A stretch of 30,412 nucleotides of DNA from Bacteroidales bacterium (lineage in GTDB: Bacteria; Bacteroidota; Bacteroidia; Bacteroidales; FEN-979), in assembly GCA_016926765.1 (NCBI GenBank), contig JAFGNY010000234.1, positions 1 to 30,412 on the forward strand, in the 5' to 3' direction. How positions within the stretch are numbered: position 1 is the first letter of the stretch; the number at the start of each line of letters is the position of its first letter. Below, piece by piece: positions 3,247 to 28,597 of this stretch. The position numbers and the translations under genes were made by a program. Below the pieces are notes generated by a model, which was not told the origin of the DNA, ran no database searches, and saw only the letters and a list, made by a program, of their open reading frames with translations.

Positions 3247-3269
3247 GACGAGTCATGCCTCGTCTCTAC
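3247..3269 (-). repeat. GTAG-type REP-like palindrome
   Basis: Minus strand GTAGAGACGAGGCATGACTCGTC; stem GACGAG/CTCGTC; same family as 6321-6348 and 15170-15189. Confidence 0.75.
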
Positions 3270-3278
3270 ATTGTCCTC

Positions 3279-3306
3279 TTACGTCTCACGTCTCACGTCT
3301 TACCTC
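3279..3306 (-). repeat. 7-bp tandem array overlapping the atpA stop
   Basis: Minus strand GAGGTAA GACGTGA GACGTGA GACGTAA. Confidence 0.85.
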
Positions 3307-4889
3307 TTCTCCTCGTATTTTCTCGAAATGTCTGCAGCTGCTTTCTCCATGGCTTTTTCATCCTCTTCAAGCAATTTCCCATCCCGGAGATGATCAAGTA
3401 CTGCTTTGTGATGGGTTTCCATATAAAGAAGGTATTCCTCTTCAAAATCCATCACACTTCGTACCGGCACACTCTTCAGCAGGCCCCTGGTACCGCAAAA
3501 AATGATAGCGACCTGCTTCTCCACTGGCATGGGCGCGTACTGTGCCTGTTTCAGGATCTGTACATTGCGGGCTCCTTTTTCTAGTACCGCTTTGGTTGAT
3601 GCGTCCAGATCGGAACCAAATTTGGAAAAAGCTTCCAGTTCCCGGTATTCGGCCTGCGCGAGTTTCAAGGTTCCGGCCACCTTTTTCATCGATTTGATCT
3701 GGGCGTTGCCTCCGACACGGGATACGGAGATCCCCACATTGATTGCCGGACGAATGCCCGAGTTGAAGAGCCCTGTCTCCAGGAAGATCTGGCCATCAGT
3801 AATCGAAATGACATTGGTCGGAATATAGGCGGTAACGTCACCGGCCTGGGTTTCTATGATCGGGAGAGCCGTGAGAGAACCACCTCCTTTCACCATGTGA
3901 CGGATCGATTCCGGCATATCGTTCATTTTTTTTGCTACAGCATCGGAAGAGATGATTCTGGCCGCCCGTTCAAGCAAGCGGGAGTGAAGGTAAAAGACAT
4001 CTCCCGGATAAGCCTCCCGCCCGGGAGGACGGCGAAGCAGCAGGGATACCTCGCGATAGGCCACAGCCTGTTTTGACAGATCATCATAAATCACCAGAGC
4101 CGGTCGGCCGGTATCCCTGAAAAACTCACCGATAGCTGCCCCGGTAAAGGGAGCATAAAACTGCATGGCTGCGGGATCGGATGCGGTAGCAGTGACAATA
4201 ACGGTATAGGCCATCGCCCCTTTTTCCTCAAGGGTCTTCAGAATAGTTGCCACCGTGGAGCCCTTTTGTCCGATAGCCACGTAGATGCAGTAGACCGGTT
4301 CTCCCTGTTGATAAAACTCCAACTGGTTGATGATCGTGTCAACGGCAATTGCCGTTTTTCCGGTTTGTCTGTCGCCAATAATCAGCTCACGCTGGCCCCT
4401 TCCGATCGGGATCATCGCATCAATAGCCTTGATCCCGGTTTGTAGCGGTTGGTTGACTGGTTGACGGTAAATAACACCCGGGGCTTTCCGTTCCAGCGGC
4501 ATCTCATAGCGTTCGCCTTCGATCTTTCCCTTCCCGTCAATCGGTTCCCCAAGGGTGTTGACAACCCTCCCAAGAAGTCCATCCCCTACCTCGACAGAGG
4601 CAATCCTCCGGGTTCTCTTAACAATATCACCCTCTTTGATATCATAGGCTTCTCCAAGCAGAACAACACCTACGTTATCCTCTTCCAGGTTGAGTACGAT
4701 GGCCCGGATGCCATTTTTCTCAAACTCCACCAGTTCGCCCGATTCGGCATTGGTCAGACCATAGATCCGGGCAATCCCGTCTCCTACCTGCAGAACGGTC
4801 CCGATCTCTTCAAGTTCGGCGACATTATGATACCCCGCCAATTCATGCCGTAAAATCGCAGAGACTTCGGCTGGTTTTATTTCTGTCAT
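3300..4889 (-). CDS. atpA: ATP synthase F1 alpha subunit
   Basis: [10 protein letters not shown], Walker [40 protein letters not shown]. Start moved from the track's 4970 to ATG 4889 (MTEIKPAEV), which removes an 80-bp overlap with atpH. Confidence 0.98.
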
Positions 4890-4890
4890 A

Positions 4891-5451
4891 TTAAAATCCT
4901 TTTTTATACAAGTTGATTCGTGCAGATCCTCTGCGCATCCGTTCGATCTGATACTGGATACTGGCGTCATACTGCATATCTTCCCAGTTCAGGATAAATC
5001 CTCCGATGATCTCCGGATTGATCTTCTGAATCAGTTCAATTTTCCAGTTCGTATACTTTGTCATGATGGAAATCGCCTGGTTTCTGATGGCTTCGGTAAC
5101 CGGGATGGCAGAAGTAAGAACTACAGGGAGGATCTGTTTATACTCTTTGTATTGTCTGATAATTTTCTCCGCGATTTCAGGGATATAAGCTTCCCTGTTT
5201 TTACGAACAAGGATCAGGAGAAACTTCATGGTCATTTCATGAAGCTGTTTTTTGAAAATCTCGTTCAGGATCTTCTCTTTTTTCTCAATACTGATGACGG
5301 GGCTCTTTAAAATAAGTACAAAGAGCTTATTCTCCCTGCAAACGGAAGAGAGTTCAATGGCATCAGCATAAATGGCATCCTCCTGTCTCTTTTCGACAGC
5401 AAGTTCAAAAAGCGCTTTGGCATACCGTTCCGCTATCAGGGATATCCTCAT
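4891..5451 (-). CDS. atpH: ATP synthase F1 delta subunit
   Basis: [29 protein letters not shown]; lies between atpF and atpA. Confidence 0.95.
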
Positions 5452-5459
5452 CTGGAAGG

Positions 5460-5954
5460 CTAATTAAAATGGATCTTATCCATTTGCTGCTGGATAAATT
5501 TCTCCTGCTGACCTGCATCAGCCAGTTCATGTTCCAGGATTTTGGTTGCAATCTCAAGGGATAGTTCAGCAAGTTGATTCTTCAGATCCGTCATGGCCGC
5601 CATCTTCTCATTTTCAATGCTCTCCTTGGCGCTGGCGATGATCCTGGAAGCCTCTTCCTTGGCTTGATCTTTCGACTCTTCAATGATAGCATCCCGGACT
5701 TTCCGGGCATCACTCAGGATGGCATCGCGTTCATCTTTCGCCTGATGAAGTAACTCTTCATTGCTGAACTGAAGCTGCTTCATCTCTTCCTTCGCCCTGT
5801 CGGCAGCATGCAATGCATCATAGATAGATGTTTCCCGGTCTTTCAGGGCTTTCAGGATTGGGTTCCAGGCAAACTTCCGAAGGATCAGTAACAGGATCAG
5901 AAATGGTAACGTCATCCAAAAAATCAACCCTAATCCGGGGGTAATCAGTTCCAT
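5460..5954 (-). CDS. atpF: ATP synthase F0 b subunit
   Basis: N-terminal TM helix (PGLGLIFWMTL), KFAWNPILKALKDRE, long coiled coil. Confidence 0.96.
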   Translation of the reverse strand: MELITPGLGLIFWMTLPFLILLLILRKFAWNPILKALKDRETSIYDALHAADRAKEEMKQLQFSNEELLHQAKDERDAILSDARKVRDAIIEESKDQAKEEASRIIASAKESIENEKMAAMTDLKNQLAELSLEIATKILEHELADAGQQEKFIQQQMDKIHFN

Positions 5955-5980
5955 AGTTCGGTTAATTTAATTCGTACAAA

Positions 5981-6019
5981 GTTCTTAATGGCTCAACCAA
6001 CCGTTAAGCCATTAAGAAC
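5981..6019. terminator. Strong intergenic hairpin between atpE and atpF (RNA-stability or attenuation element)
   Basis: Perfect 13-bp inverted repeat GTTCTTAATGGCT (5981-5993) / AGCCATTAAGAAC (6007-6019). No long U-tract, so the function is uncertain. Confidence 0.55.
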
Positions 6020-6029
6020 CAGCTGTTTC

Positions 6030-6397
<368 letters not shown>

Positions 6398-6409
6398 TTA
6401 TTTTCATTT

Positions 6410-6465
6410 ATTCGTATCTCGTCATTCGTATATTCAATCGTCATTCGTAAATCGAATTATTCGTA
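6410..6465. repeat. Degenerate ATTCGTA heptamer cluster just downstream of atpB
   Basis: ATTCGTA at 6410, 6424, 6443 and 6459, with related TCGTC/ATCG pieces between. Confidence 0.65.
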
Positions 6466-6472
6466 AATTCCT

Positions 6473-7594
6473 TTAGTGTTTTTCCGTTTCAATGGTTGCC
6501 AACCCGAAATAGAGAGCTGACAATAAAGTAAATACATAGGCCTGGATGAAGGCAACAAGGATCTCCAGCAGATCCATAAAGACGATGAATGCGACGGAAA
6601 CCACCGAAACCCCATATCCCAATGCCACACTGATCGACCCAAAGATAAATACCAGACTGACGAAGCCCAGTACGATGATGTGCCCGGCTGCCATGTTGGC
6701 AAAAAGCCGCACCATCAGAACAAACGGCTTGGTGATGATCCCTACGATCTCCACAACCGGCATCAGGGGAATAGGAAGCTTCAGCCACCAGGGAACCCCG
6801 GGGGTGTTGATGATATCAACCCAATAATGCCTGTTTCCGTTAATGGTGGTCAACACAAAAGTAAATATGGCCAGAACCATCGTGATCGCAATATTTCCGG
6901 TGACATTGGCGCCTCCTGGAAATATCGGGATAATGCCCATCAGGTTGTTAAGAAAGATAAAAAAGAAAATGGTCAGCAGGAAAGGCATGAATTTTTCATA
7001 TGATTTCTCCCCGATGGAACTTTTTGCAATGTCGTCGCGAATAAAGATAATCAGGGGTTCCAGCAGGGACTGCATTCCTTTTGGCGCTGATTTTGGATTC
7101 CGTTTGTAGCGGTTGGCAATAGAGATGAATATCCAAAGAAGTAAAATACTACTGATCAGGATGGCCATCACGGTCTTGGTAATGGAAAAATCATAGAGAG
7201 GTTTATCAGATTTCGCTTCCGGATGAATCTTCCCTTTCTCCAGTACAAATCCATTATAGGTATGTTCAGCATTATGAAATCTGGAAGACCAGAAAGTGTG
7301 TATTTTTCCGTCATACAACACAATGATGGGTAACGGGATGGTGACATGGGTATGCCCCAGTGTGGCAATATGCCATTCATGGTTATCAACCACATGTTCC
7401 ATGATCATTTTACCGGCGTCGAATTCGTGTTCAATGATTAAATCTTCATCGTATTGAAAAGTTGAATCTACTCCTGCTTCTTGTGCCGCATGAAATGGTC
7501 CTGAAGCATGTGCCGGAAAATCCGGAAATACCAGAAGAACCAGAAACAGGAAAAAAAGAAAAGTGAGAACCCTGACGTCCTGTGTTCGAACCAT
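6473..7594 (-). CDS. atpB: ATP synthase F0 a subunit (long Bacteroidota type)
   Basis: FLLTIFFFI...N..G, NVTGNI, KPFVLMVRLFANM.AGH, EILVAFIQAYVF.LLS.LYF. Start uncertain: track gives 7660; ATG 7594 (MVRTQD) precedes a hydrophobic leader and is preferred. Confidence 0.96.
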   Translation of the reverse strand: MVRTQDVRVLTFLFFLFLVLLVFPDFPAHASGPFHAAQEAGVDSTFQYDEDLIIEHEFDAGKMIMEHVVDNHEWHIATLGHTHVTIPLPIIVLYDGKIHTFWSSRFHNAEHTYNGFVLEKGKIHPEAKSDKPLYDFSITKTVMAILISSILLLWIFISIANRYKRNPKSAPKGMQSLLEPLIIFIRDDIAKSSIGEKSYEKFMPFLLTIFFFIFLNNLMGIIPIFPGGANVTGNIAITMVLAIFTFVLTTINGNRHYWVDIINTPGVPWWLKLPIPLMPVVEIVGIITKPFVLMVRLFANMAAGHIIVLGFVSLVFIFGSISVALGYGVSVVSVAFIVFMDLLEILVAFIQAYVFTLLSALYFGLATIETEKH

Positions 7595-7639
7595 ATAGAC
7601 TATTTCATGCTGATTTTCGGGCTGCAAGTTTACGAAAAA

Positions 7640-7670
7640 TTCATGAAATACTGAAATCAAATTTCATGAA
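7640..7670. promoter_or_regulatory. 10-bp perfect inverted repeat upstream of atpB
   Basis: TTCATGAAAT (7640-7649) and ATTTCATGAA (7661-7670) with an 11-nt spacer; role unknown. Confidence 0.4.
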
Positions 7671-7700
7671 CATATGAAAATATGTTCAGCTGACAGGGTT

Positions 7701-8057
7701 TTATGGTTGGGGGGTATTGACCCAAAGGATCACATATTGCTCAATTCCCGCCCATACCTGCACTGCACCATAGTCTTCCCAATGTTCGGTATCATACCAG
7801 TAGTAGATCGGAGGAAGGTTCAGAAAAAGGACTTCCCCGTCCTCATCGGTCCACTGGTTGGTGATGTAGTTTCCTGCTTTCAGGTTTTCATAGCTGGTAG
7901 CAAGATAAACCTGCTCCCCAACCAGGAGATTTCCGTTCGAGTCCATGACCCTGATCACCAGAAGGCCAACCGTTGCCTCTTCCGAGCTGCAAGATGGCAG
8001 CATCACACTCGTGGCGAAAAAGAGAAAGCCGGATAGGATAATAAACAACTTTTTCAT
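7701..8057 (-). CDS. Hypothetical lipoprotein, possibly prealbumin/carboxypeptidase-regulatory-like beta domain
   Basis: MKK + hydrophobic core + lipobox LPS-C23 followed by acidic SSEE; V.D.NG....G..V and TDEDG.V.F..L patterns. Confidence 0.75.
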   Translation of the reverse strand: MKKLFIILSGFLFFATSVMLPSCSSEEATVGLLVIRVMDSNGNLLVGEQVYLATSYENLKAGNYITNQWTDEDGEVLFLNLPPIYYWYDTEHWEDYGAVQVWAGIEQYVILWVNTPQP

Positions 8058-8082
8058 GCGGAAGGGTCTTTAAAATCTGCAA

Positions 8083-8090
8083 CAAAGATA
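8083..8090 (-). promoter_or_regulatory. Bacteroidota -7 box for the lipoprotein (and probably atp) transcript
   Basis: Minus strand TATCTTTG, 26 bp upstream of the ATG at 8057. Confidence 0.65.
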
Positions 8091-8197
8091 GCAAAAAACA
8101 GCCATTCGTAAAATAAATCCTGTGATTATCAGTTTGTAACATTTGAGTGTGGCAGACGTCTAAGTTTTTCAGTCCTTGCGGATTTATTAAAATTCCG

Positions 8198-8205
8198 TAC
8201 ATTTG
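8198..8205 (+). promoter_or_regulatory. Bacteroidota -7 box upstream of the tolC-like gene
   Basis: TACATTTG, with TTG at 8175-8177 at -33-like spacing. Confidence 0.6.
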
Positions 8206-8225
8206 AACCTTTAAATGAACATGTC

Positions 8226-9683: not shown

Positions 9684-9694
9684 ACTTTAACTCC

Positions 9695-11071: not shown

Positions 11072-11835
11072 TGTCACTTATCCTGGCTCTTGAAACAGCC
11101 ACTCCCGTTTGTTCTGTTGCTCTCGCCCGTGATGGAGAGGTTCTCTCCCTTTCTGAGTCGGCCATCCCAAACGGACACGCAGGGATGATAACACTACTGA
11201 TTGAGAAACTCTTTTCGGAATCCTCGTTGCACTATACCGATCTCGACGCCATTGCGGTGAGTATGGGACCGGGGTCTTATACTGGATTGCGTATTGGCGT
11301 GGCAACGGCAAAAGGTCTTTGCTATGCGCTGGACAAACCCCTGATTGCTATTCCGACGTTGGAAGCGATGACAGCCGGAATGAAACACTACCCCTCCCCC
11401 AGCCCCTCCCCAGTTGCTTCGCATTCGCTCGCAAGGGAGGGGTGTGACGGCCAACTGCCAACTGCCAACTGCCGACTGCTCTTCTGCCCGATGATCGATG
11501 CCCGGAGGATGGAGGTGTTTTGCGCGGTGTTTGATTCGGATCTCAAGGAGATTCGTTCAACCGATGCGGTGATTGTGGATGAGCATTCGTTTGAAGAGTT
11601 GCTGGATCAGCATCCGGTTCTTTTTGCCGGAAACGGATCCGGAAAATGCAAAGAGAAGTTATCCGGGAATCCGAATGCACTGTTTTTGGATCATTTTCAA
11701 CCTTCCGCAAAATTCCTGATCGAACTTGCAGAACAGAAGTTTCGTGAAAACAGGTTTGAAAACCTGGCCTACTTTGAACCCTTCTACCTGAAAGATTTCA
11801 TCGCCGGCAAACCAAAGGTCAAAGGTCTGAAGTAA
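11071..11835 (+). CDS. tsaB: tRNA t6A37 threonylcarbamoyltransferase complex subunit TsaB, with a repeat-derived insertion
   Basis: LALETATPVCSVAL, AVSMGPGSYTGLRIG, PMIDARRMEV, YFEPFYLK; start overlaps the MFP stop (TAATG). Confidence 0.95.
   Translation: MSLILALETATPVCSVALARDGEVLSLSESAIPNGHAGMITLLIEKLFSESSLHYTDLDAIAVSMGPGSYTGLRIGVATAKGLCYALDKPLIAIPTLEAMTAGMKHYPSPSPSPVASHSLAREGCDGQLPTANCRLLFCPMIDARRMEVFCAVFDSDLKEIRSTDAVIVDEHSFEELLDQHPVLFAGNGSGKCKEKLSGNPNALFLDHFQPSAKFLIELAEQKFRENRFENLAYFEPFYLKDFIAGKPKVKGLK
11391..11479 (+). repeat. In-frame hairpin + GCCAACT heptamer insertion in tsaB
   Basis: CCCCTCCC (11403-11410) pairs with GGGAGGGG (11435-11442); GCCAACT x3 + GCCGACT at 11450-11477. Confidence 0.88.
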
Positions 11836-11852
11836 AAGATAACAAAAACGAC

Positions 11853-11879
11853 CACTGCACCACAGCACTATGGCACTAT
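11853..11879. repeat. Degenerate 8-bp array between convergent tsaB and Omp28 genes
   Basis: CACTGCAC CACAGCAC TATGGCAC TAT. Confidence 0.45.
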
Positions 11880-13494: not shown

Positions 13495-14676
13495 ATGGCT
13501 GAAACAAATCACTATAAGGCTCCTGACCACTATCTGGTTGATGATCTGCTCACGGATGAGCACAAGATCGTGAGAAATGCCGTTCGAGATTGGGTTAACC
13601 GGCATGTGAAACCTATCATTGAAGTACAATATGAAAAAGCTCAATTCCCCATACATCTGATCCGTGAAATGGGGCAGATCGGCGCCTTTGGTCCATTTAT
13701 TCCCGAAGGGTACGGCGGCCCGGGTCTCGACTATATCTCCTATGGGCTGATCATGCAGGAACTTGAGCGGGGCGATTCCGGGATCCGTTCCATGGCATCG
13801 GTCCAGTCGTCGCTGGTTATGTATCCGATTTTTTCATACGGATCTGAAGAACAAAAGAGGAAATACCTGCCCTCCCTGGCGACAGGAGAGCTGATTGGTT
13901 GTTTCGGGCTCACCGAACCCGACCACGGGTCCGATCCCGGAAGCATGAAAACCCATGTAAAAGAGATGGACGATCATTTCCTTTTAAATGGCTCCAAGAT
14001 GTGGATCACCAATTCCAGCATTGCCGATGTGGCGGTGGTTTGGGCAAAAGATGAGGCCGGCGTGATCAGGGGGTTCATCGTGGAAAAGGGCTGGGAAGGA
14101 TTCACTGCGCCCGAGATCCATGGTAAGTGGTCGCTGCGGGCTTCCGTGACCGGTGAACTCGTATTTGACAACGTGAAAGTTCCGAAAGATCATATCCTGC
14201 CTAACGTGGAAGGGTTGAGAGGCCCTCTGAGCTGCCTCAACTCTGCCCGCTTCGGTATCGCCTGGGGTGCAATCGGAGCAGCTATGGATTGCTATGATGC
14301 AGCTGTAAGGTATTCTCTCGAACGGATTCAGTTCGACAAACCAATCGGAGGATTCCAGCTTCAGCAGAAGAAACTGGCGGAGGCTTTGACTGAGATCACC
14401 AAAGCCCAGTTGCTTGCCTGGCGAATGGGAGTCCTTCGCAACGAAGGCCGTGTCACAGCAGCACAGATATCGATGGCCAAACGGAACAATGTCGCTATGG
14501 CCCTCACTATCGCCAGGGAGTTGCGCCAGGTTCTCGGTGCCATGGGAATTACCAATGATTTCCCGATGATGCGCCATATGATGAACCTCGAATCGGTAAT
14601 CACGTATGAAGGAACTCACGACATTCACCTGCTGATTACGGGAGCGGAGATAACCGGGATTCAGGCTTATAAATAG
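13495..14676 (+). CDS. gcdH: Acyl-CoA dehydrogenase, glutaryl-CoA dehydrogenase-like
   Basis: GCFGLTEPDHGSDPGSM, LNGSKMWITNS, RYSLERIQFDKPI, ESVITYEGTHDIH (GCDH-type catalytic Glu). Substrate assignment is less certain than the family. Confidence 0.85.
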   Translation: MAETNHYKAPDHYLVDDLLTDEHKIVRNAVRDWVNRHVKPIIEVQYEKAQFPIHLIREMGQIGAFGPFIPEGYGGPGLDYISYGLIMQELERGDSGIRSMASVQSSLVMYPIFSYGSEEQKRKYLPSLATGELIGCFGLTEPDHGSDPGSMKTHVKEMDDHFLLNGSKMWITNSSIADVAVVWAKDEAGVIRGFIVEKGWEGFTAPEIHGKWSLRASVTGELVFDNVKVPKDHILPNVEGLRGPLSCLNSARFGIAWGAIGAAMDCYDAAVRYSLERIQFDKPIGGFQLQQKKLAEALTEITKAQLLAWRMGVLRNEGRVTAAQISMAKRNNVAMALTIARELRQVLGAMGITNDFPMMRHMMNLESVITYEGTHDIHLLITGAEITGIQAYK

Positions 14677-14702
14677 CGAAATAGCGAAATAGCGAAATAG
14701 TG
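14671..14702 (+). repeat. AAATAGCG 8-bp tandem array overlapping the ACAD stop
   Basis: AAATAGCG x3 + AAATAGTG; the first TAG (14674-14676) is the gene's stop. Confidence 0.9.
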
Positions 14703-14772: not shown

Positions 14773-16071
14773 ATGTCTGAACACCCCTTCCGACGTTTTC
14801 CCACACGTGTGGTCCCCATTGGCAACTTGCCCATGGGAGGCTCTTATCCTATCCGGGTACAGTCGATGACCAACACCGACACACAGGATACTGAGGGAAC
14901 TGTAGCACAGGCAATCCGGATGATTGAAGCCGGATGTGAATATGTCCGGATCTCCGTACCGGGAATGAAAGATGTGGAAACCCTTCGGAAAATCAAGAAG
15001 GAGATCCGGGATGCCGGATTCACTGCCCCGTTGATTGCCGACGTCCATTTCAAACCGAAAATCGCTGAAATCGCTGCCACGATCGTGGAAAAGGTGAGGA
15101 TCAACCCTGGAAACTACGTTTCAGGGTCAAGGGTCAAGGTTCAAGGGTCAAGGATGAAGGGTCCTGCAGGGACGAGGCATGCCTTGTCCGAGGGCCAAGG
15201 GTCAAGGATGAGCGAAACGAAATCCGGCATCCGGCATCCGGAATCCGGCATCCAGCATCCGGCATCCGGCATCCGGAATCCGGCATCTGACCAGCATTAT
15301 TTCGACGAAATCTCCACCCGACTGACTCCTTTGCTTAAAATCTGTAAGGATCATGGGACAGCAATCCGCATCGGCGTAAACCACGGCTCGCTTTCCGAAC
15401 GAATCATGGATCGGTTTGGAGATACACCGGAGGGGATGGTAGAGTCGGCACTGGAGTTCGCCCGAATCTGTGAAGAGCACGGTTTCCGAAACCTGGTATT
15501 GTCGCTCAAATCCTCCAACACCCGCGTGATGATCCTTGCCAACCGTTTGCTTGTGGAACGAATGAAAGAAGAAAGCATGGATTATCCCTTGCACCTGGGT
15601 GTTACCGAAGCAGGCGCAGGGGAAGACGGGCGGTTGAAATCTGCCGTGGGGATCGGCAGCCTGCTGGCCGACGGGATCGGTGATACAATCCGGGTTTCGA
15701 TCACTGAAGACCCGGAACACGAGATCCCGGTTGCTTACGGAATCCTCCAGGCCACAGGTGTCAGGATCACTCGCACCGAATACATCTCCTGCCCCTCCTG
15801 TGCCCGGACTCTTTTCGATATCCAGAAATCGGTTCAAACGATCAAGGAACGAACCGGACATCTTACCGGATTAAAAATCGCCGTCATGGGTTGTATCGTG
15901 AATGGTCCGGGTGAAATGGCTGATGCACATTATGGATATGTGGGCGCCGGAAAAGGAAAAGTCAACCTTTACAAAGGGCAGACTTTGGTCAAGAAAAATG
16001 TGGATGAATCGGTTGCCGTGGAAGCCTTGATTCACCTGATCAAAGAAAACGGGGAGTGGATAGAACTTTAA
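14773..16071 (+). CDS. ispG: (E)-4-hydroxy-3-methylbut-2-enyl-diphosphate synthase (flavodoxin), with a repeat-derived insertion
   Basis: PIRVQSMTNT, PLIADVHF, RINPGN, RIGVNHGSL, PLHLGVTEAG, GDTIRVS, CPSC...MGCIVNGPGE [4Fe-4S] ligands. Confidence 0.96.
   Translation: MSEHPFRRFPTRVVPIGNLPMGGSYPIRVQSMTNTDTQDTEGTVAQAIRMIEAGCEYVRISVPGMKDVETLRKIKKEIRDAGFTAPLIADVHFKPKIAEIAATIVEKVRINPGNYVSGSRVKVQGSRMKGPAGTRHALSEGQGSRMSETKSGIRHPESGIQHPASGIRNPASDQHYFDEISTRLTPLLKICKDHGTAIRIGVNHGSLSERIMDRFGDTPEGMVESALEFARICEEHGFRNLVLSLKSSNTRVMILANRLLVERMKEESMDYPLHLGVTEAGAGEDGRLKSAVGIGSLLADGIGDTIRVSITEDPEHEIPVAYGILQATGVRITRTEYISCPSCARTLFDIQKSVQTIKERTGHLTGLKIAVMGCIVNGPGEMADAHYGYVGAGKGKVNLYKGQTLVKKNVDESVAVEALIHLIKENGEWIEL
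15121..15290 (+). repeat. In-frame composite insertion in ispG: AGGGTCA array, REP palindrome, (C/A)ATCCGG array
   Basis: 6 AGGGTCA-like units at 15123-15164; GGACGAGGCATGCCTTGTCC at 15170-15189; 3 more units at 15191-15211; 10 (C/A)ATCCGG-like units at 15221-15290. Confidence 0.93.
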
Positions 16072-18452: not shown

Positions 18453-18514
18453 GTCCCGGTTTTCGTGAAAAAAGTCCGGACGGAACGGGAAGGACATCTT
18501 TCCCCCACCCCCAA

Positions 18515-18544
18515 GAGGTTGTCTCAAAACATCGAAACAGCCTC
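18515..18544. repeat. Degenerate inverted-repeat element
   Basis: GAGGTTGTCTC-AAAACATC-GAAACAGCCTC (one wobble, one mismatch), followed by TTTTTT on the plus strand. Confidence 0.45.
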
Positions 18545-18606
18545 TTTTTTCTCCCCCTTCCCTTCTTGGGGAAAGCTTTCCAAGCCGATCAAACATCCTG
18601 CATTCC

Positions 18607-18635
18607 CAATCGTCCAATCGACAATCGACAATCAG
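18607..18635. repeat. CAATCGA heptamer array at the AraC gene stop
   Basis: CAATCGT C CAATCGA CAATCGA CAATCAG; the last unit includes the AraC stop (18632-18634). Confidence 0.75.
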
Positions 18636-19801
18636 TTTGAAAACACTGCTCCATGTTCCGGCTGGTATTTCCGCCGGTATTCGACCGGGGTCATGGTAGT
18701 GGCTTTCCGGAAAGCGGTATAAAAGGCCGACTTGGAGTTGAATCCGCAATCGTACGCGATGGCGATTACTTTCAGGTGATTAAACCGGGAGTTATGCAGT
18801 AATTTCATTACCTCTTCGATACGATAGGTATTGATAAAATCATAGAAATTCTGGTGAAACTGCTCATTGATGACCTGGGAGAGTTTGTGGATGGTAGTGC
18901 TTAACCGGGAAGCCAGATCCTGCAGGTTGAGTTCGGGATCGAGGTAGAGCTTATCAGTTTTCATCAATCGTTTTAACTCCTGCAGGATCTTTTCGGTTTC
19001 CTGATCCTGAAGTCCTGATTTCTGGTATTTGAATTCCTTTTCGGGATGTGCGGAGAGGTTCCCTTCAAAACGGATATTGGAGATCGCCTCCAGGGTGTGT
19101 TCTGAAAAAATCCCCTGTTGCCGGTAACCGAAAACCCCCACCCCCATCAGAAACAGGATCAACACCACTACCGATATGATGTTGAGGACCGGCAGAACTG
19201 GCAGAAGTCCATAATCCATCAAATAGAGTAAACCGAGAGAAAAAAGAATATAGAACAGAAAGCCCCCTGACAGATAGAGCAACCAGTTAAGCTCTTTTTG
19301 TTTGCGGGAGGAAAAAAATCCGGGGATCCGTTTACGGTATCTGAGCACTGTCAGGAAAGTGACAACCAGGTAGACCGATACGCAGAATTCCCAGATGAGA
19401 TCAATGATGAGGCGGTAGATGAGGTGGTGGTTGGCAAAGATGAAAAAATTACCGGGTTTGGTATCCAGGAAAAGATAATGGACAAACGGGACCATCACTA
19501 CCGCCAGCGGGATCAGGTGAAACAACAATCTGAGCCGGAAAGGGCGATCCTTCCGGATGATGAATAGAGCATACAGATAAATGGCGGGGCCCAACAGGAC
19601 CCAGTATCCCAGATCGAGGCCTGTCAACCAGTTCGGCGCCGTGGCCAAACCAAAGCAAAACGTACGGTAAATCAGTTCGGCACCAACCAGGATGAAAAAG
19701 AGTCCCAGAAAGAGATCAGAAGGTTTTTTCGGTTGTTTGATCGCAATGAGGATCAGGAAAAGGACAACGAACGCCAGGCCGGTGAGGGGAATAGTTGCCA
19801 T
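18632..19801 (-). CDS. AraC family transcriptional regulator with multi-pass membrane N-terminus
   Basis: About 7 hydrophobic segments, then LYLDPELNLQDLA...LSQVIN...NFYDFIN.YR and IAYDCGFNSKSAFYTAFRK..MTP.EYR. Confidence 0.92.
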   Translation of the reverse strand: MATIPLTGLAFVVLFLILIAIKQPKKPSDLFLGLFFILVGAELIYRTFCFGLATAPNWLTGLDLGYWVLLGPAIYLYALFIIRKDRPFRLRLLFHLIPLAVVMVPFVHYLFLDTKPGNFFIFANHHLIYRLIIDLIWEFCVSVYLVVTFLTVLRYRKRIPGFFSSRKQKELNWLLYLSGGFLFYILFSLGLLYLMDYGLLPVLPVLNIISVVVLILFLMGVGVFGYRQQGIFSEHTLEAISNIRFEGNLSAHPEKEFKYQKSGLQDQETEKILQELKRLMKTDKLYLDPELNLQDLASRLSTTIHKLSQVINEQFHQNFYDFINTYRIEEVMKLLHNSRFNHLKVIAIAYDCGFNSKSAFYTAFRKATTMTPVEYRRKYQPEHGAVFSN

Positions 19802-23784: not shown

Positions 23785-23786
23785 AC

Positions 23787-24530
23787 TCAGGCAAATGGAT
23801 TCCTTCTTCCATGGGCTAATTTCGTTCTGAACGTTCGGAAGGAATCGGTCCCTTTGATATCGATCCGTTTAAGTTCATAGTTGTCTTTCACCGGGAGTGG
23901 ATTGATCCTGTTGCCGATACGCACCGCAAACCAGAGTTGCATCTCGGTGAAGAGTTTTTTCATCAGAAGGTTCAGTTCCGGATCTTTTTTAGGATATCCT
24001 CCATAGGGATAGGCCAGTACCCGGCTGATCCGGATATGATGGAACTCCATGGTATTGAAACAGTTTTCAAGGTCCTCCCGCATATCTTCGGGCGCCAGTT
24101 CGGCATAACTCCGGTGCAGGAACCCATGAATCCCGAGTTCAATCAGGCCGTCATCTTCGATCCGTTTTAACTCGTCCGCCGAGAGAATCTTTTCCGAGCC
24201 CTGATCCCAGAGATTTGTTTTCCCCATGAAGGCCACCGGGACAAAGAGTGCAGTTTTCATGCGGAACTTCTTCAGGATAGGCAGGGCATGGGTCCTGAAA
24301 TTTTCATAGGCATCATCAAACGTGATGATGACCGGACGCTTCGGAAGCTCTTTTCCGGTTTCAACCGACTCCCTGAGATCGAGGAACGAAATGGTTTCGT
24401 ACCCTTTTTCTGACAGATAAGCAAGCTCAAGCTCAAGCATATCGGCTGTGACCGTCAGGCCATCGGGCCCGCTGTCCGATACCTTATGGTACATCAGGAT
24501 CGGTAATCCAAATCGGGAAAAGGTACTCAT
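23787..24530 (-). CDS. Polysaccharide deacetylase (NodB/CE4)
   Basis: PILMYHKV, VIITFDDAY, ELGIHG..H, LAYPYG. Confidence 0.9.
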   Translation of the reverse strand: MSTFSRFGLPILMYHKVSDSGPDGLTVTADMLELELAYLSEKGYETISFLDLRESVETGKELPKRPVIITFDDAYENFRTHALPILKKFRMKTALFVPVAFMGKTNLWDQGSEKILSADELKRIEDDGLIELGIHGFLHRSYAELAPEDMREDLENCFNTMEFHHIRISRVLAYPYGGYPKKDPELNLLMKKLFTEMQLWFAVRIGNRINPLPVKDNYELKRIDIKGTDSFRTFRTKLAHGRRNPFA

Positions 24531-25285
24531 CTTTTTTCTTGATCTAATTCAATTGATTTTGCAATTTTCATAGAGGCATAGAAAGCGCCCAGGAGGGACC
24601 ACATAAATCCCGGATAACCGTCCAGAAATCCCGCTTTGCAACAATAAAACTGAAGAAAACTGATCGGGAATTTCAGGATCACCCAGATAGTGGGAAAACG
24701 TTTTCCTTTCAGCACGTAACTCTCTGCCGCCCGGCTGGTATAGTAATTGATCTTTTCAAGATGATGAGTCAGGTCACGGTAGGAGTAATGCAGGATCTCC
24801 CCTTTCAGCCGCCGGATCTTTCCCTGCACTTCGATTCCTTCATGCACCTTCACCTGGGTAAATCCTCCTGATTTCCGGTTGAACAGCCTAAGGTGGTAAT
24901 CGCTTCCGGCGCCGCCATGTTTCAGTTTTCTCCCAAGGTATACCAGTGAAAAACACATTTCAAATCCGGCCTCCTCAGGCTCCGGTTGTCGAAAAAGGTT
25001 TTCGATCTCTTCCTGTAGTTCCGGCGTTACCACTTCGTCGGCATCGATGGAAAAGACCCAGTCGTGAGAGGCCTGATCCACAGCAAACTGTTTCTGCATA
25101 CCATATCCGTCGAACTCCCGCTGAATAACACGGCATCCCAGTTCTTGACAGATTTCGGCAGTGCGGTCGGTCGACAGCGAATCCACCACTACGATTTCGG
25201 CAGCCAGCTCCTGTATCGATGCGATGCAGCGGCGGATGTTTGGCTCTTCGTTGAACGCAATGATAACAACGGAAATCGCGGTCAT
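24527..25285 (-). CDS. Glycosyltransferase family 2 (WaaE/KdtX-like)
   Basis: ISVVIIAFNEE, VVDSLSTDRT, WVFSIDADE, VHE, LHYSY, GFLDGYPG. Confidence 0.9.
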   Translation of the reverse strand: MTAISVVIIAFNEEPNIRRCIASIQELAAEIVVVDSLSTDRTAEICQELGCRVIQREFDGYGMQKQFAVDQASHDWVFSIDADEVVTPELQEEIENLFRQPEPEEAGFEMCFSLVYLGRKLKHGGAGSDYHLRLFNRKSGGFTQVKVHEGIEVQGKIRRLKGEILHYSYRDLTHHLEKINYYTSRAAESYVLKGKRFPTIWVILKFPISFLQFYCCKAGFLDGYPGFMWSLLGAFYASMKIAKSIELDQEKR

Positions 25286-25296
25286 GGTTCTCTCTG

Positions 25297-26088
25297 TTAA
25301 TGTATCGTAAAGGAATCCCAGTCCAGCCCGAAAGGAAACGACTCCCGGAATTTCTTCATCTCTTCAAAATTCAGTGCAACGGTTTTCACGATCTCCTCCC
25401 CCTGCTCTGCCTGAAACAATACCTTCCCCTGTGGATCCACCACCATCGAGTCGCCGGTATGGTCCATTCCGTTTCCATCCTTCCCAACCCTGTTCACACC
25501 GGCAGTGTAAGCCATGTTTTCTATCGCTCTCGCTACCATCAGCGCTTTCCACGCGAAAGAGCGAACAACAGGCCAGTTCGCCAGGTAAACCAGAAGATCA
25601 TATTCGTAGTCCTCTTCTCTGATGCGGTTTTTACTCCATACAGGAAACCGCAGGTCGTAACAGATCATCGGCATCAGCTTCCATCCTTTCAGCGGGATGA
25701 TCGTTCTCTCTTCCCCTTTCTTTATTCGTTGGATCTCGGGACTCAAACGAAAAAGATGCCGTTTATCGTATGTCAGGAAGGTGCCGTCGGGATAGTAAAA
25801 GACCAGCCTGTTCAGATAGGACTCTCCCTCTGTGATCAGCAGGGTGGCGGCAACTGCTGTCTTTTTTGTCTCGGCCATTTCGCGAAGGAACTGCATGGAA
25901 GCTCCTTCCATCGGTTCGGCACAACACTCCGGATTGATGGAAAATCCGTGATTAAAGACTTCCGGAAGAAGGATCAGATCGGTGGGCTCATGGATCCCTT
26001 CTATCAGACTGCGGAAGTGATCCAGGTTCTTCTGACGCTCTTCCCAGAAAAGGGAAGTCTGGATTAATGTGATGTTGAGGTCTTCCAT
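25297..26088 (-). CDS. Nitrilase-superfamily amidohydrolase (YafV/Nit2 omega-amidase-like)
   Basis: Catalytic E (LLPEVF), K (YDKRHLF), C (ICYDLRFP); ARAIEN..Y..GVNRVG. Confidence 0.9.
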   Translation of the reverse strand: MEDLNITLIQTSLFWEERQKNLDHFRSLIEGIHEPTDLILLPEVFNHGFSINPECCAEPMEGASMQFLREMAETKKTAVAATLLITEGESYLNRLVFYYPDGTFLTYDKRHLFRLSPEIQRIKKGEERTIIPLKGWKLMPMICYDLRFPVWSKNRIREEDYEYDLLVYLANWPVVRSFAWKALMVARAIENMAYTAGVNRVGKDGNGMDHTGDSMVVDPQGKVLFQAEQGEEIVKTVALNFEEMKKFRESFPFGLDWDSFTIH

Positions 26089-26148
26089 CCGGATTTGGCT
26101 TTTCCGTGTAAAATTAACAAGAGTATGCTAAATGCCGTCTAAAAATTT

Positions 26149-26156
26149 TAATTTTG
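26149..26156 (+). promoter_or_regulatory. Bacteroidota -7 box upstream of pgk
   Basis: TAATTTTG; overlaps the track's TTG start at 26154, favouring ATG 26181. Confidence 0.6.
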
Positions 26157-26180
26157 CTTCAGTCACAAAAGATCTTCATT

Positions 26181-27371
26181 ATGCGAACCGTCAATGATTT
26201 CAACTTCCAGGATAAGCGGGCATTGATCCGTGTTGATTTTAATGTTCCCCTGGATGCCTCTTTCCAGATCACGGATACCACCCGGATTGACGCGGCGATC
26301 CCTACGATCGAAAAAATCCTGAATGATGGAGGTTCTGTGATCCTGATGTCGCACCTGGGCAGGCCAAAAAGCGGCCCTGAAGAGAAGTTTTCCCTGAAGC
26401 ATCTTCTTCCTTACCTTTCGGAAAAGCTGGGGCGACCGTTGAAGTTTGCTGACGACTGCATCGGCCCCTCCGCCGTTGAGCTATCGGCCACCCTGCAGCC
26501 CGGAGAGGTGTTACTGCTCGAGAACCTCCGGTTTTACAAAGAAGAGGAGAAGGGCGATGAAGGCTTTGCCCGTCAGTTGGCCGACCTTGGGGATGTCTAT
26601 GTCAACGATGCCTTTGGTACCGCTCACCGGGCACATGCCTCCACGGCTGTCATCGCGAAATTCTTTCCCGAAGCCAAACTGTTCGGCTTTGTGATGAGCA
26701 ATGAGATCCTCAACATCGACAAAGTATTAAAGGATACACCCCGTCCCTTTACCGCCATCCTTGGAGGGGCGAAAGTTTCGGGCAAGATCGAGATCATCAA
26801 CCAGCTGATGGACAAAGTCGACAATTTGTTGATCGGCGGCGGAATGATGTTCACTTTCATCAAGGCAATGGGCGGCGAAGTGGGCGCTTCCCTGGTGGAG
26901 GATGACCTGCTGGAGCTGGCAAAGAATACGGTGGAGGGGGCCAAGATGCTTGGGGTGAACCTCTATCTTCCACCGGATGCCATTGTTGCTGATGCATTCT
27001 CCAACGATGCCAATAAGAAGACCTGCAGCGCCTACGACATCCAGATCCCCTGGATGGGGCTTGATATCGGGCCGGCTACCTGCGATAAGTTCCGTCATGT
27101 TATCTCGAAATCAGCCGCCATCCTCTGGAACGGACCCATGGGCGTTTTTGAGATGAACCAGTTCGAAGCGGGGACCCGGTTCATCGCTGAAGCGGTTGCA
27201 GAAGCCACTTCCAACGGGGCGTTTACCCTGATCGGCGGAGGCGACTCGGTGGCAGCGATCAACAAATACGGGCTGGCCGATAAGGTCAGCTATGTCTCAA
27301 CCGGCGGAGGCGCCATGCTGGAATATATCGAAGGTAAAGAGCTGCCAGGCATCAAAGCCATCCTCGGGTGA
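26181..27371 (+). CDS. pgk: Phosphoglycerate kinase
   Basis: [60 protein letters not shown]. Confidence 0.98.
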
Positions 27372-28417
27372 CACGGATCCTTCTCAGCCGGACCGACCGT
27401 ATCGGAGATGTTGTTCTGACCCTCCCGCTAGCCGGTGTGCTGAAAAAATACCTGCCCCAAACCACCCTGCTTTTCCTGGGGAAAACTTACACGCGGCCTG
27501 TGATTGAAGCTTGCAGCTTTGTGGACGAGTTCATCGACTGGGATCTCCTTGCAGAGCTCCCCTACCGGGAACAGGTAGCAGCATTCAGGGCATTTCGCGC
27601 TGATGCGGTCATTCATGTGTTTATGAACCGAACGATCGCTAAGCTGGCCGATGCAGCCGACATTCCGGTGAAGGTCGGTTCTGCCCATCGCCTGTTCAGT
27701 TGGCTCTATTGCAACCAGGTGGTGTGGTTCAGCCGCCGTCATTCCGATCTGCACGAAGCTCAACTCAACCTGAAATTGTTAAAACCCCTTGGGATTGAAG
27801 TGATGCTGGAGAGGGAGAGGATCCCGGAATATTATGGATTGCAGGCAGATGCGCGATACGAGATACGCGATACGAGATACGCGATGCGCGATCCAGCATC
27901 CGATATCCGGAATCCGGAATCCGGAATCCGGGATCAGGAATCCCGGTTCCGTCTGATCCTCCACCCCAAATCCAAAGGCAGCGCCCGGGAGTGGGGGCTG
28001 GAGAACTTTTCCCGGCTGATTGAGCTACTTCCGCAAAATAAATTCAGCATCTATATCACAGGGACGAAAGCGGAAGGGGAACTGATGAAGGAGTTCCTGG
28101 AAAAACACCGGGAGCAGGTCACCGATAGGACCGGGAAGATGGATCTATCTGAACTGATGGAGTTTATCAACTCGTGCGACGGAATGGTGGCAGCCAGCAC
28201 CGGACCTCTCCATCTTGCTGCCGCTTCCGGGAAAGTCGCCATTGGCTTATATGCTCCCATGCGCCCGATCCATCCGGCCCGGTGGGCTCCTTTGGGTAAA
28301 AACGCATCCTATCTCGTGCTCGATAAACCCTGCAACGACTGTCGCAAGAACCTGGACTGTCACTGTATGAAGGAGATCAGGGCAGAGGAAGTCGTTGCCA
28401 TGCTCATGAATGATTGA
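27368..28417 (+). CDS. Glycosyltransferase family 9 (heptosyltransferase-like), with a repeat-derived linker
   Basis: Plus strand from GTG 27368 reads GTG ACA CGG ATC CTT CTC AGC = MTRILLS, overlapping the pgk stop (GTGA); [29 protein letters not shown]. The track's minus label is wrong. Confidence 0.92.
27848..27945 (+). repeat. In-frame array of 14 phase-locked heptamers in the GT9 gene
   Basis: GATGCGC GATACGA GATACGC GATACGA GATACGC GATGCGC GATCCAG CATCCGA TATCCGG AATCCGG AATCCGG AATCCGG GATCAGG AATCCCG. Confidence 0.93.
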
Positions 28418-28482
28418 TTCCCGGCTTCCCTTCCTGATGGTATCTCAACCGTAAATCCTCCTTCATACATCTACATTCTCCA

Positions 28483-28510
28483 TCGTACTTCGTAAATCGT
28501 ATTTCGTACT
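28483..28510. repeat. TCGTA-core heptamer array between convergent GT9 and cvpA genes
   Basis: TCGTACT TCGTAAA TCGTATT TCGTACT. Confidence 0.8.
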
Positions 28511-28597
28511 TCCAGGGTATCATTGTCATCCCAACGAGGGAGGGAAAGTGATGGTTGGTAAATGGAACAAGCAAATAGATACTATCTTTCTGAACCA

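Follow-up and report, generated by a model that had tools for sequence, protein, structure and literature searches.

The 30,412-nt stretch of DNA analysed here (the window), from an uncultured sediment Bacteroidales, carries about ten tandem arrays of 7- or 8-nt units, several with a hairpin within 60 bp. This raises the question of whether hairpin and array form one element laid down by a repeat-writing enzyme, as a preliminary description proposed, or whether the arrays arose otherwise.

The arrays are real and a trait of the whole genome, bearing out the claim that they exceed chance and extending it beyond the window. Over the 2.82 Mb available (405 contigs, only 70% complete), TRF at a score of at least 40 called 223 arrays of period 7 and 129 of period 8, as compared with one of each in a 5th-order Markov control; the corresponding counts were 32 and 3 for period 9, 2 and 0 for period 6, and 5 and 5 for period 10. 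There was no genome-wide excess for periods of 6 or less, or of 10 or more, and the surplus consists of 7- and 8-nt units and, to a slight extent, 9-nt ones. A census of perfect repeats with at least 2.5 copies gave 182, 89 and 7 arrays for periods 7, 8 and 9, no excess for periods 4 and 5 and a marginal one for period 6. Array density was around 16 times higher in intergenic than in coding DNA, and approximately one quarter of the arrays lie within genuine enzyme genes, in frame and without stops; these coding and intergenic counts are approximate, because genes were called with a crude ORF-scoring scheme (92% coding). Arrays are also clustered: 45 pairs of neighbours are separated by at most 20 nt, where 9.6 would be expected, and arrays of different unit families frequently adjoin one another.

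Within the window, TRF called nine of the arrays previously described; CACAGCAC is only a degenerate three-unit run (CACNGCAC ×3, 11853–11876, plus strand, shortly 3′ of the tsaB stop), and the ATTCGTA words at 6400–6465 are irregularly spaced and yielded no TRF array. Judging from ORFs and Pfam matches, a heptamer array of GACGTGA/GACGTAA (gene strand; 3277–3308, minus) includes the stop codon of atpA (ORF 3300–4970), the first unit of the perfect octamer array AAATAGCG ×3.8 (14671–14700, plus) is the TAG stop of an acyl-CoA dehydrogenase gene (13495–14676), and a short CAATCGA array (×2.7, 18615–18633) abuts the stop of an AraC-family gene (18632–19801, minus). TCGTACT ×4.3 (28483–28512) lies in the spacer that separates the convergent GT9 and cvpA genes, and the octamer CATTCCTG ×3.5 (1169–1196, plus) lies 9 nt upstream of the start of an ORF (1205–1765).

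Genome-wide, arrays hug the 3′ ends of genes, and 109 of 479 begin at or over a stop codon. After stops, their sense strand is G-rich and purine-rich (G>C, 83:33), before starts it is C-rich (C>G, 42:12), and arrays in coding DNA showed no G/C skew. The CATTCCTG array is C-rich on the sense strand of its ORF, matching the rule upstream of starts. Orientation relative to the upstream gene was 14:0 for AAAGACG and 20:1 for AAGCGGAC, which lies directly after same-strand stop codons here and in two other genera. In coding DNA the sense bias was 25:10 for ATCCGGC and 13:3 for AAGCGGAC, hydrophilic readings of the units are favoured, and 81% of units are stop-free on both strands, compared with 55% in intergenic DNA and 53% of random 7-mers.

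The proposal that arrays build in-frame protein loops held for IspG, TsaB and the GT9 glycosyltransferase, and for further sampled ORFs: 19 of 20 ORFs with internal arrays gave strong Pfam matches, array-bearing genes also include those for PFL, DapF and RadA, and the arrays are placed in linkers and loops of these real enzymes. It is true that coding arrays are stop-free in every sense frame, but this adds no information, since a 7-mer array of at least three units is read in all three phases and is thus necessarily stop-free in each. In ispG, AGGGTCA ×5.9 (15123–15163, plus) starts directly 3′ of the conserved NPGNY motif, and ATCCGGC ×9.4 (15222–15287, plus; peptide SGIRHPA) ends at the conserved SDQ(H/Q)Y motif; residues 123–193 replace an 8-residue loop of Aquifex IspG (3NOY). 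In tsaB, GCCAACT ×4.3 (11450–11479, plus) encodes the peptide QLPTANC, and around 13 heptamer units in a single register lie within the inter-domain linker of GT9 (27848–27943, plus). Among orthologues, the same slots in related species differ in unit and copy number while their length stays a multiple of three: inserts in ispG measure 168, 159, 90, 93 and 180 nt, the tsaB slot holds other 7- or 8-mer arrays in congeners, and the GT9 linker is hypervariable in them, with one Logan contig 42 nt (six units) longer at the array. The units of GT9, previously read as a unit switch, drift gradually, unit by unit, from GATACGC through GATGCGC, GATCCAG and CATCCGA to AATCCGG, which fits evolution in situ.

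Most of the hairpins in the window are real. Relative to shuffled sequences, folding was stronger at 6312–6356 (z −5.5), 11388–11446 (z −2.7), 18512–18552 (z −2.2) and 3240–3280 (z −2.0); the segment 15160–15200 belongs to a sequence family but folds with a z of only −0.7, and the hairpin suggested at 28524 folds no better than shuffles (z −0.6). They fall into three or more unrelated kinds. The GGCATGCC REP family comprises a degenerate palindrome between atpG and atpA (3249–3270), two tandem copies with AAGGTTCA flanks between atpE and atpB (6307–6400; z −5.5 and −1.1) and a palindrome within the AGGGTCA array of ispG (15158–15196), the last bracketed by a 15-nt direct repeat (15143–15157 and 15197–15211, 54 nt apart). 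The CCCCTCCCC..GGGGAGGGG element in tsaB (11391–11446, plus), which recurs at other loci and is here read in frame, has a loop into which a TTGCTTCGC..GCAA insert is nested, and the stem at 18512–18552 (plus) is terminator-like, with a T-run, and unrelated to the REP family.

An origin in which REP hairpins nicked by a RAYT-type transposase, or an RT or primase-polymerase copying a short template, prime and write the units, hairpin and array being one element, is very improbable. Such an origin draws on the proximity of hairpins to several window arrays and on the non-random usage of units, and REP-like elements do adjoin arrays above chance, mainly in ORFs (5 of 12, with 0.17 expected, as compared with 5 of 15 and 1.6 expected in intergenic DNA). 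Seen from the arrays, however, co-location was at chance: 9 of 342 had a strict-stem hairpin neighbour, against 7.3 ± 2.5 in matched controls, flank folding energies of intergenic arrays did not differ from those of controls, and less than about 5% have a REP-family element nearby. Orthologue DNA also opposes hairpin-primed growth, since the ispG palindrome occurs only in the genome studied and four relatives share the array slot without it; in tsaB, one species has the array alone and only two have the nested insert, a series that begins with the array by itself, continues with array and hairpin together and ends with the nested insert. From these comparisons, hairpins look secondary to arrays. 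Moreover, 74 unit families would need many templates, and the enzymes invoked neither occur in this genome nor follow array load in relatives. Pfam searches for Y1_Tnp (RAYT), RVT_1 and Prim-Pol gave no match in the genome, only 70% complete; Y1_Tnp was missing from 5 of 10 array-rich congeners and present in array-poor G015, G017 and G019, RVT_1 was absent from array-rich G003, G007, G010, G234, G240 and G225 and present in array-poor G013 and G237, and Prim-Pol was absent from all six congeners searched.

We see equally little to commend arrays as cargo of a MITE-like composite element inserting as a unit. Arrays of different families do lie side by side, and a few loci, such as C81 and C243, have around 35 nt in common between arrays. 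Nevertheless, with arrays masked, shared non-array flanks were limited to 44 of 377 clusters, and the shared pieces are short hairpin elements; the flanks of 53 ATCCGGC-family arrays were unrelated, order and orientation of neighbouring arrays vary, and no terminal inverted repeats or fixed or conserved ends were seen around arrays. The scarcity of shared flanks, with the chance-level hairpin co-location of arrays, leaves the composite of hairpin and array unsupported.

Unit usage is non-random. As first described, the same units recur at unlinked sites: among 74 unit families, the ATCCGGC family accounts for 68 of 313 heptamer arrays and AAGCGGAC for 63 of 162 octamer arrays, as compared with top families of 19.7 and 6.6 for random genomic words. 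This recurrence had been taken to suggest a common generator. For ATCCGGC no special one is needed, because by genome frequency its class is 11th of 1172 word classes (ATCCCGG is 5th), making chance seeds common, and word frequency predicts heptamer array units overall (Spearman p = 2e-12). The octamer AAGCGGAC, conversely, has 47–63 arrays and a word class ranking only 2213th of 4178, so that chance seeds are insufficient. It is patchy over scattered species of three genera (pattern matches: G000, 81; G001, 21; G229, 26; G234, 56; G240, 57), and it is absent from congeners of these species and from 200 other genera of the order. AAGCGGAC, oriented directly 3′ of stops, is therefore unaccounted for by a chance-seed model.

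On balance, and with somewhat better than even confidence, we favour a reading of the arrays as long simple-sequence repeats that arose in place, when tandem duplications expanded through a slippage-type process specific to the lineage, and that were kept only where tolerated. A tandem duplication of at least 7 nt would escape whatever corrects smaller loops, and then expand. Two-copy seeds would come mostly from chance, their supply dropping about three- to fourfold per added base, which, combined with the sharp lower limit at 7 nt, would rank arrays 7 > 8 > 9 >> 10 and let frequent words such as ATCCGGC seed many of them. Simulated two-copy seeds numbered 199, 56, 18 and 2 for periods 7 to 10; the array-to-seed ratio varies across periods 7 to 9, which counts against this model. 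Selection would then filter out stops and intolerable peptides in genes and retain G-rich sense strands in 3′ regions, and the REP-like hairpins may be separate small elements accumulating in the same permissive slots. Heptanucleotide dominance of long simple-sequence repeats and the idea of slippage linked to the polymerase footprint are attributed to Mrazek et al. 2007 in the accounts given by PMC4679880 and PMC4692102. What survives of the proposed common generator is a lineage-specific process, restricted to periods 7 and 8, genome-wide and common to 10 of 10 sampled congeners, and not a hairpin-linked enzyme.

The array excess is patchy among related species, and load differs more than 25-fold between some congeners, toggling from 26 per 100 kb in G225 to 0 in G015. 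This, together with the distribution of AAGCGGAC, its count unexplained by word frequency and the similar patchiness of TAACTGA repeats across phyla (PMC4679880), is what a horizontally transmissible, sequence-specific agent writing units such as AAGCGGAC would explain, including the vocabulary common to non-sister species; the agent would be, for example, a nuclease or transposase that makes staggered 7–8-bp cuts and whose own site is restored once these have been filled in and joined again. We consider it unlikely, given the 74 unit families, heptamer units that follow word frequency, gradual drift within arrays and flanks without conserved ends. No candidate gene was found: Y1_Tnp, RT, Prim-Pol, TnpB-type genes, Ku and XisH did not track array load. 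Neither did MutL, RecJ, ExoVII or Pol I 5′ nuclease, and the failure to find any repair or replication gene whose presence or absence follows load counts against the slippage reading. The oriented 3′-end arrays (AAGCGGAC, AAAGACG and others) could instead be selected RNA or DNA elements, such as sites for a single-strand-binding regulator or 3′-UTR stabilisers, with coding copies as by-products. Their orientation, the arrays starting at stops, the post-stop context of AAGCGGAC in two other genera, the G-rich and C-rich sides of genes and the regulatory role proposed for TAACTGA repeats (PMC4679880) all point that way, but units and copy numbers turn over freely at the same site between species and identical units occur inside enzymes, which makes a functional role doubtful. 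Moreover, the G>C rule is compositional and spans many unrelated units, so that a generic filter (for example, avoidance of C-rich Rho-loading tracts) or a transcription-linked expansion bias fits better than a specific binding site. Finally, assembly or binning artefacts could be suspected in a fragmented metagenome bin of 405 contigs, the more so as Logan contigs assembled from the source run are interrupted at arrays; this is almost certainly not the cause, because independent MAGs from other studies have arrays in the same slots of the proteins and keep the reading frame, a Logan contig matches 15055–15251 with 0 differences, and arrays lie in long ORFs of conserved enzymes.

Rickettsia palindromic elements (RPE) are palindromic mobile elements of 100–150 bp and conserved sequence, selfish-looking short DNA that is translated in frame and adds a surface peptide to essential proteins. 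The GGCATGCC and CCCCTCCCC hairpins of ispG and tsaB, with their in-frame read-through, resemble them, unlike the arrays, which are non-palindromic, lack shared flanks and evolve in situ. The GTAG..GGCATGCC..CTAC palindromes are also REP/BIME-like in being short, dispersed, mostly intergenic, with compensatory stem changes, and tandem between atpE and atpB. They differ from REP/BIME and REPIN-RAYT systems in having few copies (13–15 close ones, and 50 bare GGCATGCC cores), some in frame in genes, and from the latter also in that no Y1 transposase was found in the genome studied or most congeners.

The arrays themselves are closest to LSSR, which, in the parts of the survey of Mrazek, Guo & Shah (2007) relayed by PMC4679880 and PMC4692102, have units of 5–11 nt, most commonly heptamers, a sporadic phylogeny and many units per genome, those in coding regions being multiples of three. 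As far as that account goes, they share with ours the short tandem arrays, heptamer dominance, sporadic distribution, many units and an explanation by polymerase slippage, and differ in that here dozens of housekeeping enzymes contain 7- and 8-mers in frame, octamers almost match heptamers in number and the lineage is Bacteroidales. For Nostoc GGGGAYT, Xanthomonas GGGAATC and cyanobacterial STRR, each genome has a single G-rich unit type or a small number of them, potentially able to form G-quadruplexes (Rehm et al. 2015, PMC4692102). They too form heptamer arrays of about four units, mostly intergenic, variable between close relatives and sometimes in inverted pairs, whereas the genome studied has 74 unit families, the majority of which cannot form G4, and a large share of its arrays is read in frame within genes. 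The TAACTGA direct repeats of Beggiatoaceae, Cyanobacteria and Bacteroidetes, which contain stops, are found immediately 5′ of start codons (MacGregor 2015, PMC4679880); like them, AAGCGGAC is one short unit at many loci, patchy in non-sister lineages and fixed in orientation to the neighbouring gene, but it lies just downstream of stop codons, is stop-free and also occurs within genes.

Tandem Repeats Finder (TRF) recovered the short-period arrays, head-to-tail runs of 7- or 8-nt units, that the preliminary description had listed in the window, apart from two weaker items. For the supposed ATTCGTA array at 6400-6465 the words are irregularly spaced and TRF makes no call, and the CACAGCAC run just downstream of the tsaB stop (11853-11876) is present, but degenerate and only three units long. 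Genome-wide, TRF found arrays throughout the host assembly (2.82 Mb in 405 contigs, 70% complete, 3.75% contamination, 47% G+C), with a period-specific excess: at a score of at least 40 there were 2, 223, 129, 32 and 5 arrays of periods 6, 7, 8, 9 and 10, respectively, versus 0, 1, 1, 3 and 5 in a fifth-order Markov simulation of the same genome, that is, 352 real versus 2 simulated arrays for periods 7 and 8 together. At a score of at least 34 we counted 479 arrays of period 7 or 8, mostly of 3-5 copies and with a maximum of 19.6. Perfect tandem repeats of at least 2.5 copies numbered 182, 89 and 7 at periods 7, 8 and 9 (2, 1 and 0 in the simulation), with no excess at periods 4-5 and 10-12 and a marginal one at period 6. 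The arrays are genuine and not assembly artefacts, because arrays occur at the same protein positions, with intact frames, in MAGs of other studies, and an independently assembled Logan contig is identical to window positions 15055-15251.

The gene setting of the window is ordinary, with ORFs and Pfam matches identifying the atp operon (atpG, atpA, atpB), tsaB, an acyl-CoA dehydrogenase, ispG, a GT9 glycosyltransferase and cvpA, together with a large FG-GAP/PKD/LamG protein and an AraC-family regulator. The longest atpA ORF (3300-4970) begins approximately 27 codons upstream of the usual Pfam N-terminal domain start and overlaps the atpH ORF (4891-5451); the real atpA start is probably further downstream. 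Aligned IspG orthologues with 79-83% protein identity belong to MAGs labelled Bacteroidetes, Bacteroidales or Prolixibacteraceae, and a sediment metagenome is the best holder of the window DNA among public runs.

Array density was about 16-fold higher in intergenic than in coding DNA (1.09 vs 0.068 per kb by our own ORF calls), these counts being approximate, as a crude ORF-scoring gene caller assigned 92% of the genome as coding. Intergenic arrays hug the 3' ends of genes (174 vs 80) and shun divergent promoter regions, and 109 of the 479 arrays start at or over a stop codon. Nevertheless, around 80 of the 342 arrays with a score of at least 40 lie inside long ORFs, and 19 of 20 sampled ORFs with internal arrays encode well-known enzymes, including a tricorn-type protease, CinA, a Mur ligase-alanine racemase fusion, an E2 acyltransferase, an FAD oxidase, an ABC ATPase, an Fe-ADH, DapF, a PfkB kinase, RadA, UbiD, a pyruvate formate-lyase (PFL), an aconitase-family protein and a MiaB-like enzyme. 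In IspG, the repeat-coded residues 123-193 replace an 8-residue loop of the Aquifex enzyme, directly after the INPGN motif. In the literature that we searched, in-frame heptamer arrays have not been described for Bacteroidota. Arrays also cluster, with 45 gaps of 20 nt or less between neighbours where 9.6 were expected, and this would allow compensating changes between neighbours, so that the loss of one unit from one array could offset the gain of one in the other.

Alignment of orthologues showed insertion polymorphism, with units and copy numbers varying by species at the protein positions, or slots, occupied by arrays in ispG, GT9 and tsaB. The ispG slot, from NPGNY to SDQxY, is 168 nt long in the window and 159, 90, 93 and 180 nt in four relatives, all multiples of three; four of these genomes contain AGGGTCR plus CATCCGG arrays, and the fifth a GGACGAG array. 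The GT9 inter-domain linker differs in each congener compared, its peptides being encoded by GGACGAG-, GATACGC- or ATCCGGC-type units or by hairpin elements, and is short and plain in three more distant relatives, whose array load was not sampled. In tsaB, one subclade carries four copies of ACTGCCA, another AGGTTCA plus GAAATCG, and a further one ATTACGA-, ATCAGGC- and GAAACYC-type runs; in one species CAGTCCG is combined with the octamer CTCACCAG, a sister genus has still other units, and the two most distant relatives compared contain no array. These slots are sites that tolerate junk and are rewritten repeatedly. Variation may extend to populations: in a Logan contig from the source metagenome the GT9 array (window 27847-27888) is 42 nt longer, or 6 units and 14 codons, a possible in-frame length variant that was seen in one assembled contig at a depth of 2.7, compared with approximately 7 for the main form. 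The assembled Logan contigs of this run break at arrays. The unit switch that had been described in GT9 is a one-by-one drift of units within a single register.

The preliminary description had also read as a signal that coding arrays are free of stops in every sense frame. This is forced, since the units of a 7-mer array pass through all three reading phases. Units free of stops on both strands make up 55% of intergenic arrays and 53% of random 7-mers, versus 81% of coding arrays. Where a unit lacks stops in both directions, genes favour its hydrophilic reading, by 25:10 for ATCCGGC (IRHPASG) and by 13:3 for the octamer AAGCGGAC (KRTSGQAD), a bias in the predicted peptides that supports translation of the coding arrays. 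Untranslated arrays follow other strand rules. Just after stops, the array strand that is sense for the upstream gene is rich in G (83:33) and in purines (86:32), and just upstream of starts the sense strand is C-rich (42:12), with examples in the window at 14671-14700 and 1169-1196; coding arrays showed no strand skew.

Several arrays of the window lie close to hairpins, and the two had been proposed to form one system, in which a REP hairpin primes repeat addition by a RAYT, a reverse transcriptase (RT) or a primase-polymerase. The GGCATGCC-core palindrome occurs four times in the window (3249, 6328, 6375 and 15173) and as 13-15 close copies genome-wide with compensatory stem changes, and these are, like REPs, dispersed, conserved and imperfect palindromes. 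The other window hairpins are one CCCCTCCCC..GGGGAGGGG element in tsaB and a terminator-like stem at 18512; a sixth candidate, at 28524, folds no better than shuffled sequences. Seen from the arrays, co-location with strict stems does not exceed chance (9 of 342 arrays vs 7.3 ± 2.5 at class-matched random sites), and the folding energies of intergenic array flanks cannot be told apart from those of controls; coding arrays are the sole class with more very strong hairpins (15% vs 7%). Seen from the hairpins, 5 of 12 REP-like elements inside ORFs adjoin an array where 0.17 were expected, as do 5 of 15 in intergenic DNA where 1.6 were expected. The simplest reading is that hairpins and arrays both survive solely at the same few tolerant sites. 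Polarity in ispG and tsaB also speaks against priming by hairpins: the ispG REP is present in this genome alone, within an array slot common to four relatives, and in tsaB the array stands alone in one species and is joined by the hairpin in two, and the window and one other have an additional insert nested in the hairpin loop. The ispG REP is bracketed by an exact 15-nt direct repeat, AAGGGTCAAGGATGA, at 15143-15157 and 15197-15211 (54 nt apart), which could be an insertion target duplication or reflect a 54-nt in-frame duplication. Unrelated genes, ispG and tsaB among them, contain small hairpin elements in frame. The nested tsaB insert (11414-11435) is a short element of CATTGCGAGCGAAGCGAAGCAA type, also found in frame in ispG of one relative (locus L003, approximately 3400-3440) and in tsaB of another (locus L067), and seems to be a tiny dispersed element in its own right, palindrome-like and crossing species boundaries.

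The enzymes proposed to write the arrays fared no better. This genome has no Y1_Tnp, RVT_1 or Prim-Pol match, which at 70% completeness proves little alone, and array load in relatives does not correlate with RAYT, RT or primase-polymerase genes. Y1_Tnp (PF01797) was not found in 5 of 10 congeners, with a strong match only in G006, and is present in the array-poor G015, G017 and G019. RVT_1 (PF00078) is absent from the array-rich G001, G003, G007, G010, G225, G234 and G240 and present in the array-poor G013 and G237, a pattern at odds with a telomerase-like, RT-templated addition, for which an RT gene should accompany the arrays; Prim-Pol was absent from all six congeners searched. The observation in the preliminary description was largely right, whereas its mechanism is unsupported. 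A larger mobile element around the arrays was likewise rejected: all-against-all blastn with arrays masked returned only short hairpin families, with 44 of 377 clusters (12%) sharing a flank, and the flanks of 53 ATCCGGC-family arrays are unrelated, which indicates that arrays are not cargo of a larger element. Array unit families were defined by greedy clustering, as single linkage merged all units into one family. Compound arrays showed no fixed order of array families.

The simulated genome contains 199, 56, 18 and 2 two-copy seeds of periods 7, 8, 9 and 10, and real arrays from 7 upwards (223, 129, 32 and 5) fall roughly with this supply, with a cliff below 7. The frequency of a heptamer word is a predictor of its use in arrays, with 41.5% of arrays falling in the top frequency quintile, which agrees with chance seeding. 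The recurrence of units in ispG and GT9 needs no special generator, the ATCCGGC word class being frequent (11th of 1172, with ATCCCGG 5th). We propose that a slipped loop of at least 7 nt would escape correction in these lineages and that smaller loops would not, which is close to the polymerase-footprint idea attributed to Mrazek et al. 2007. MutL (MutL_C) was found in 40 of 40 relatives, and Pol I 5' nuclease, RecJ and ExoVII in array-rich and array-poor genomes alike; Ku and a TnpB-type zinc ribbon were in none of the rich or poor genomes searched. The commonest 8-bp palindromes in the genome by far are ATCCGGAT (386) and TTCCGGAA (306), and arrays explain their abundance only in part, as heptamer classes containing ATCCGG rank with the most frequent words even when arrays are set aside.

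Array load is patchy at the species level. All 10 sampled congeners of the window genome are array-rich, with 5-36 arrays per 100 kb in samples of 9-40 kb. Samples of 73-100 kb gave 26 arrays per 100 kb for G225 versus 0 for G015 in genus g6, and 19, 13 and 10 for G240, G223 and G234 versus 2 and 4 for G013 and G237 in genus g4; these samples are small, and that of G223 was partly guided by earlier matches. Its first 22-kb sample held no array and the larger, partly hit-guided one 13 per 100 kb, indicating that small samples are noisy.

The octamer AAGCGGAC is the unit of 63 arrays, yet its word class is only middling (rank 2213 of 4178). Its three-unit pattern, allowing at most one mismatch, has 81 matches in the window's own genome (G000), 21 in G001 of the same genus, 26 in G229 (genus g2), and 56 and 57 in G234 and G240 (g4), but 0-5 in congeners of the rich species and none in 200 genomes from approximately 167 other genera of the order. 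In G000, and in G234 and G240 (loci L114-L127), these arrays directly follow same-strand stop codons with a 20:1 orientation. Plain slippage does not explain this species distribution and fixed post-stop position, which resemble the TAACTGA puzzle (PMC4679880) and keep two further readings alive. In one, a transmissible factor with sequence specificity turns on array-richness, and units like AAGCGGAC, in scattered species; it might be a nuclease or transposase that leaves iterated fill-in duplications of 7-8 bp, or an as yet unknown enzyme that adds repeats; we consider such a factor improbable. XisH, a lead from PMC4679880, gave no matches, but the control was silent too and the search is hence uninformative. 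In the other, which we also doubt, AAGCGGAC is kept for a function in the 3' region. Were the transmissible factor real, the long-sought source of heptamer repeats in bacteria would be pinned down by the congeneric pairs G225/G015 and G234-G240/G013-G237.

The arrays agree with the definition of long simple sequence repeats (tandem units of 5-11 nt in about three or more copies), including the dominance of heptamers and the genome-wide excess over composition-matched expectation. Of the variation in copy number among strains that ongoing slippage would produce, the one longer GT9 contig (depth 2.7, among assembled contigs only) is a possible case, and units and copies differ between species. 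Cyanobacterial STRRs differ in host, here a Bacteroidales/Prolixibacteraceae-like MAG, and in units, at least from the heptamers that we take to be canonical. Dispersed palindromes are shared with REP/REPIN-RAYT systems, but no RAYT gene was found in this 70%-complete genome, and generation of the arrays at hairpins is unsupported. The tandem arrays are unlike Rickettsia palindromic elements in being non-palindromic and without shared flanks, whereas the small hairpin elements may resemble them as conserved palindromes lying in frame in unrelated genes. Judging from the genes concerned, phase-variable contingency loci would be a poor description, as the hosts are housekeeping genes (IspG, TsaB, PFL, DapF, RadA, aconitase-family) and the orthologous slots are all in frame. 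What is distinctive is the presence of non-triplet units in frame in housekeeping enzymes and the large coding fraction, together with octamers near parity with heptamers, slot turnover, context-dependent strand rules and species-level patchiness.

At stake since 2007 has been why heptamers dominate long bacterial SSRs and why some lineages are rich in them. Three handles emerge here: the sharp lower limit of 7 nt, beyond which numbers fall roughly in step with seed supply; a more than 25-fold difference in load among congeners, which makes it possible to look for the responsible gain or loss of a gene with phylogenetically independent contrasts; and the distribution and post-stop position of AAGCGGAC. 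Arrays are also one of the main reasons why essential proteins vary in length, adding loops to IspG, TsaB, PFL and others, and in practice they hinder assembly and orthologue alignment. Outside the arrays, an intergenic spacer of the window (976-1062) contains 2.3 copies of a 38-nt unit, CAATGCGGGAACCGGAGCGAAGCGGAACTCGGCGAAGC; a related segment, GCTTCGCTTCGCTCCGGTTCG, flanks arrays on contigs C66 and C160, and the unit looks like another small dispersed element.
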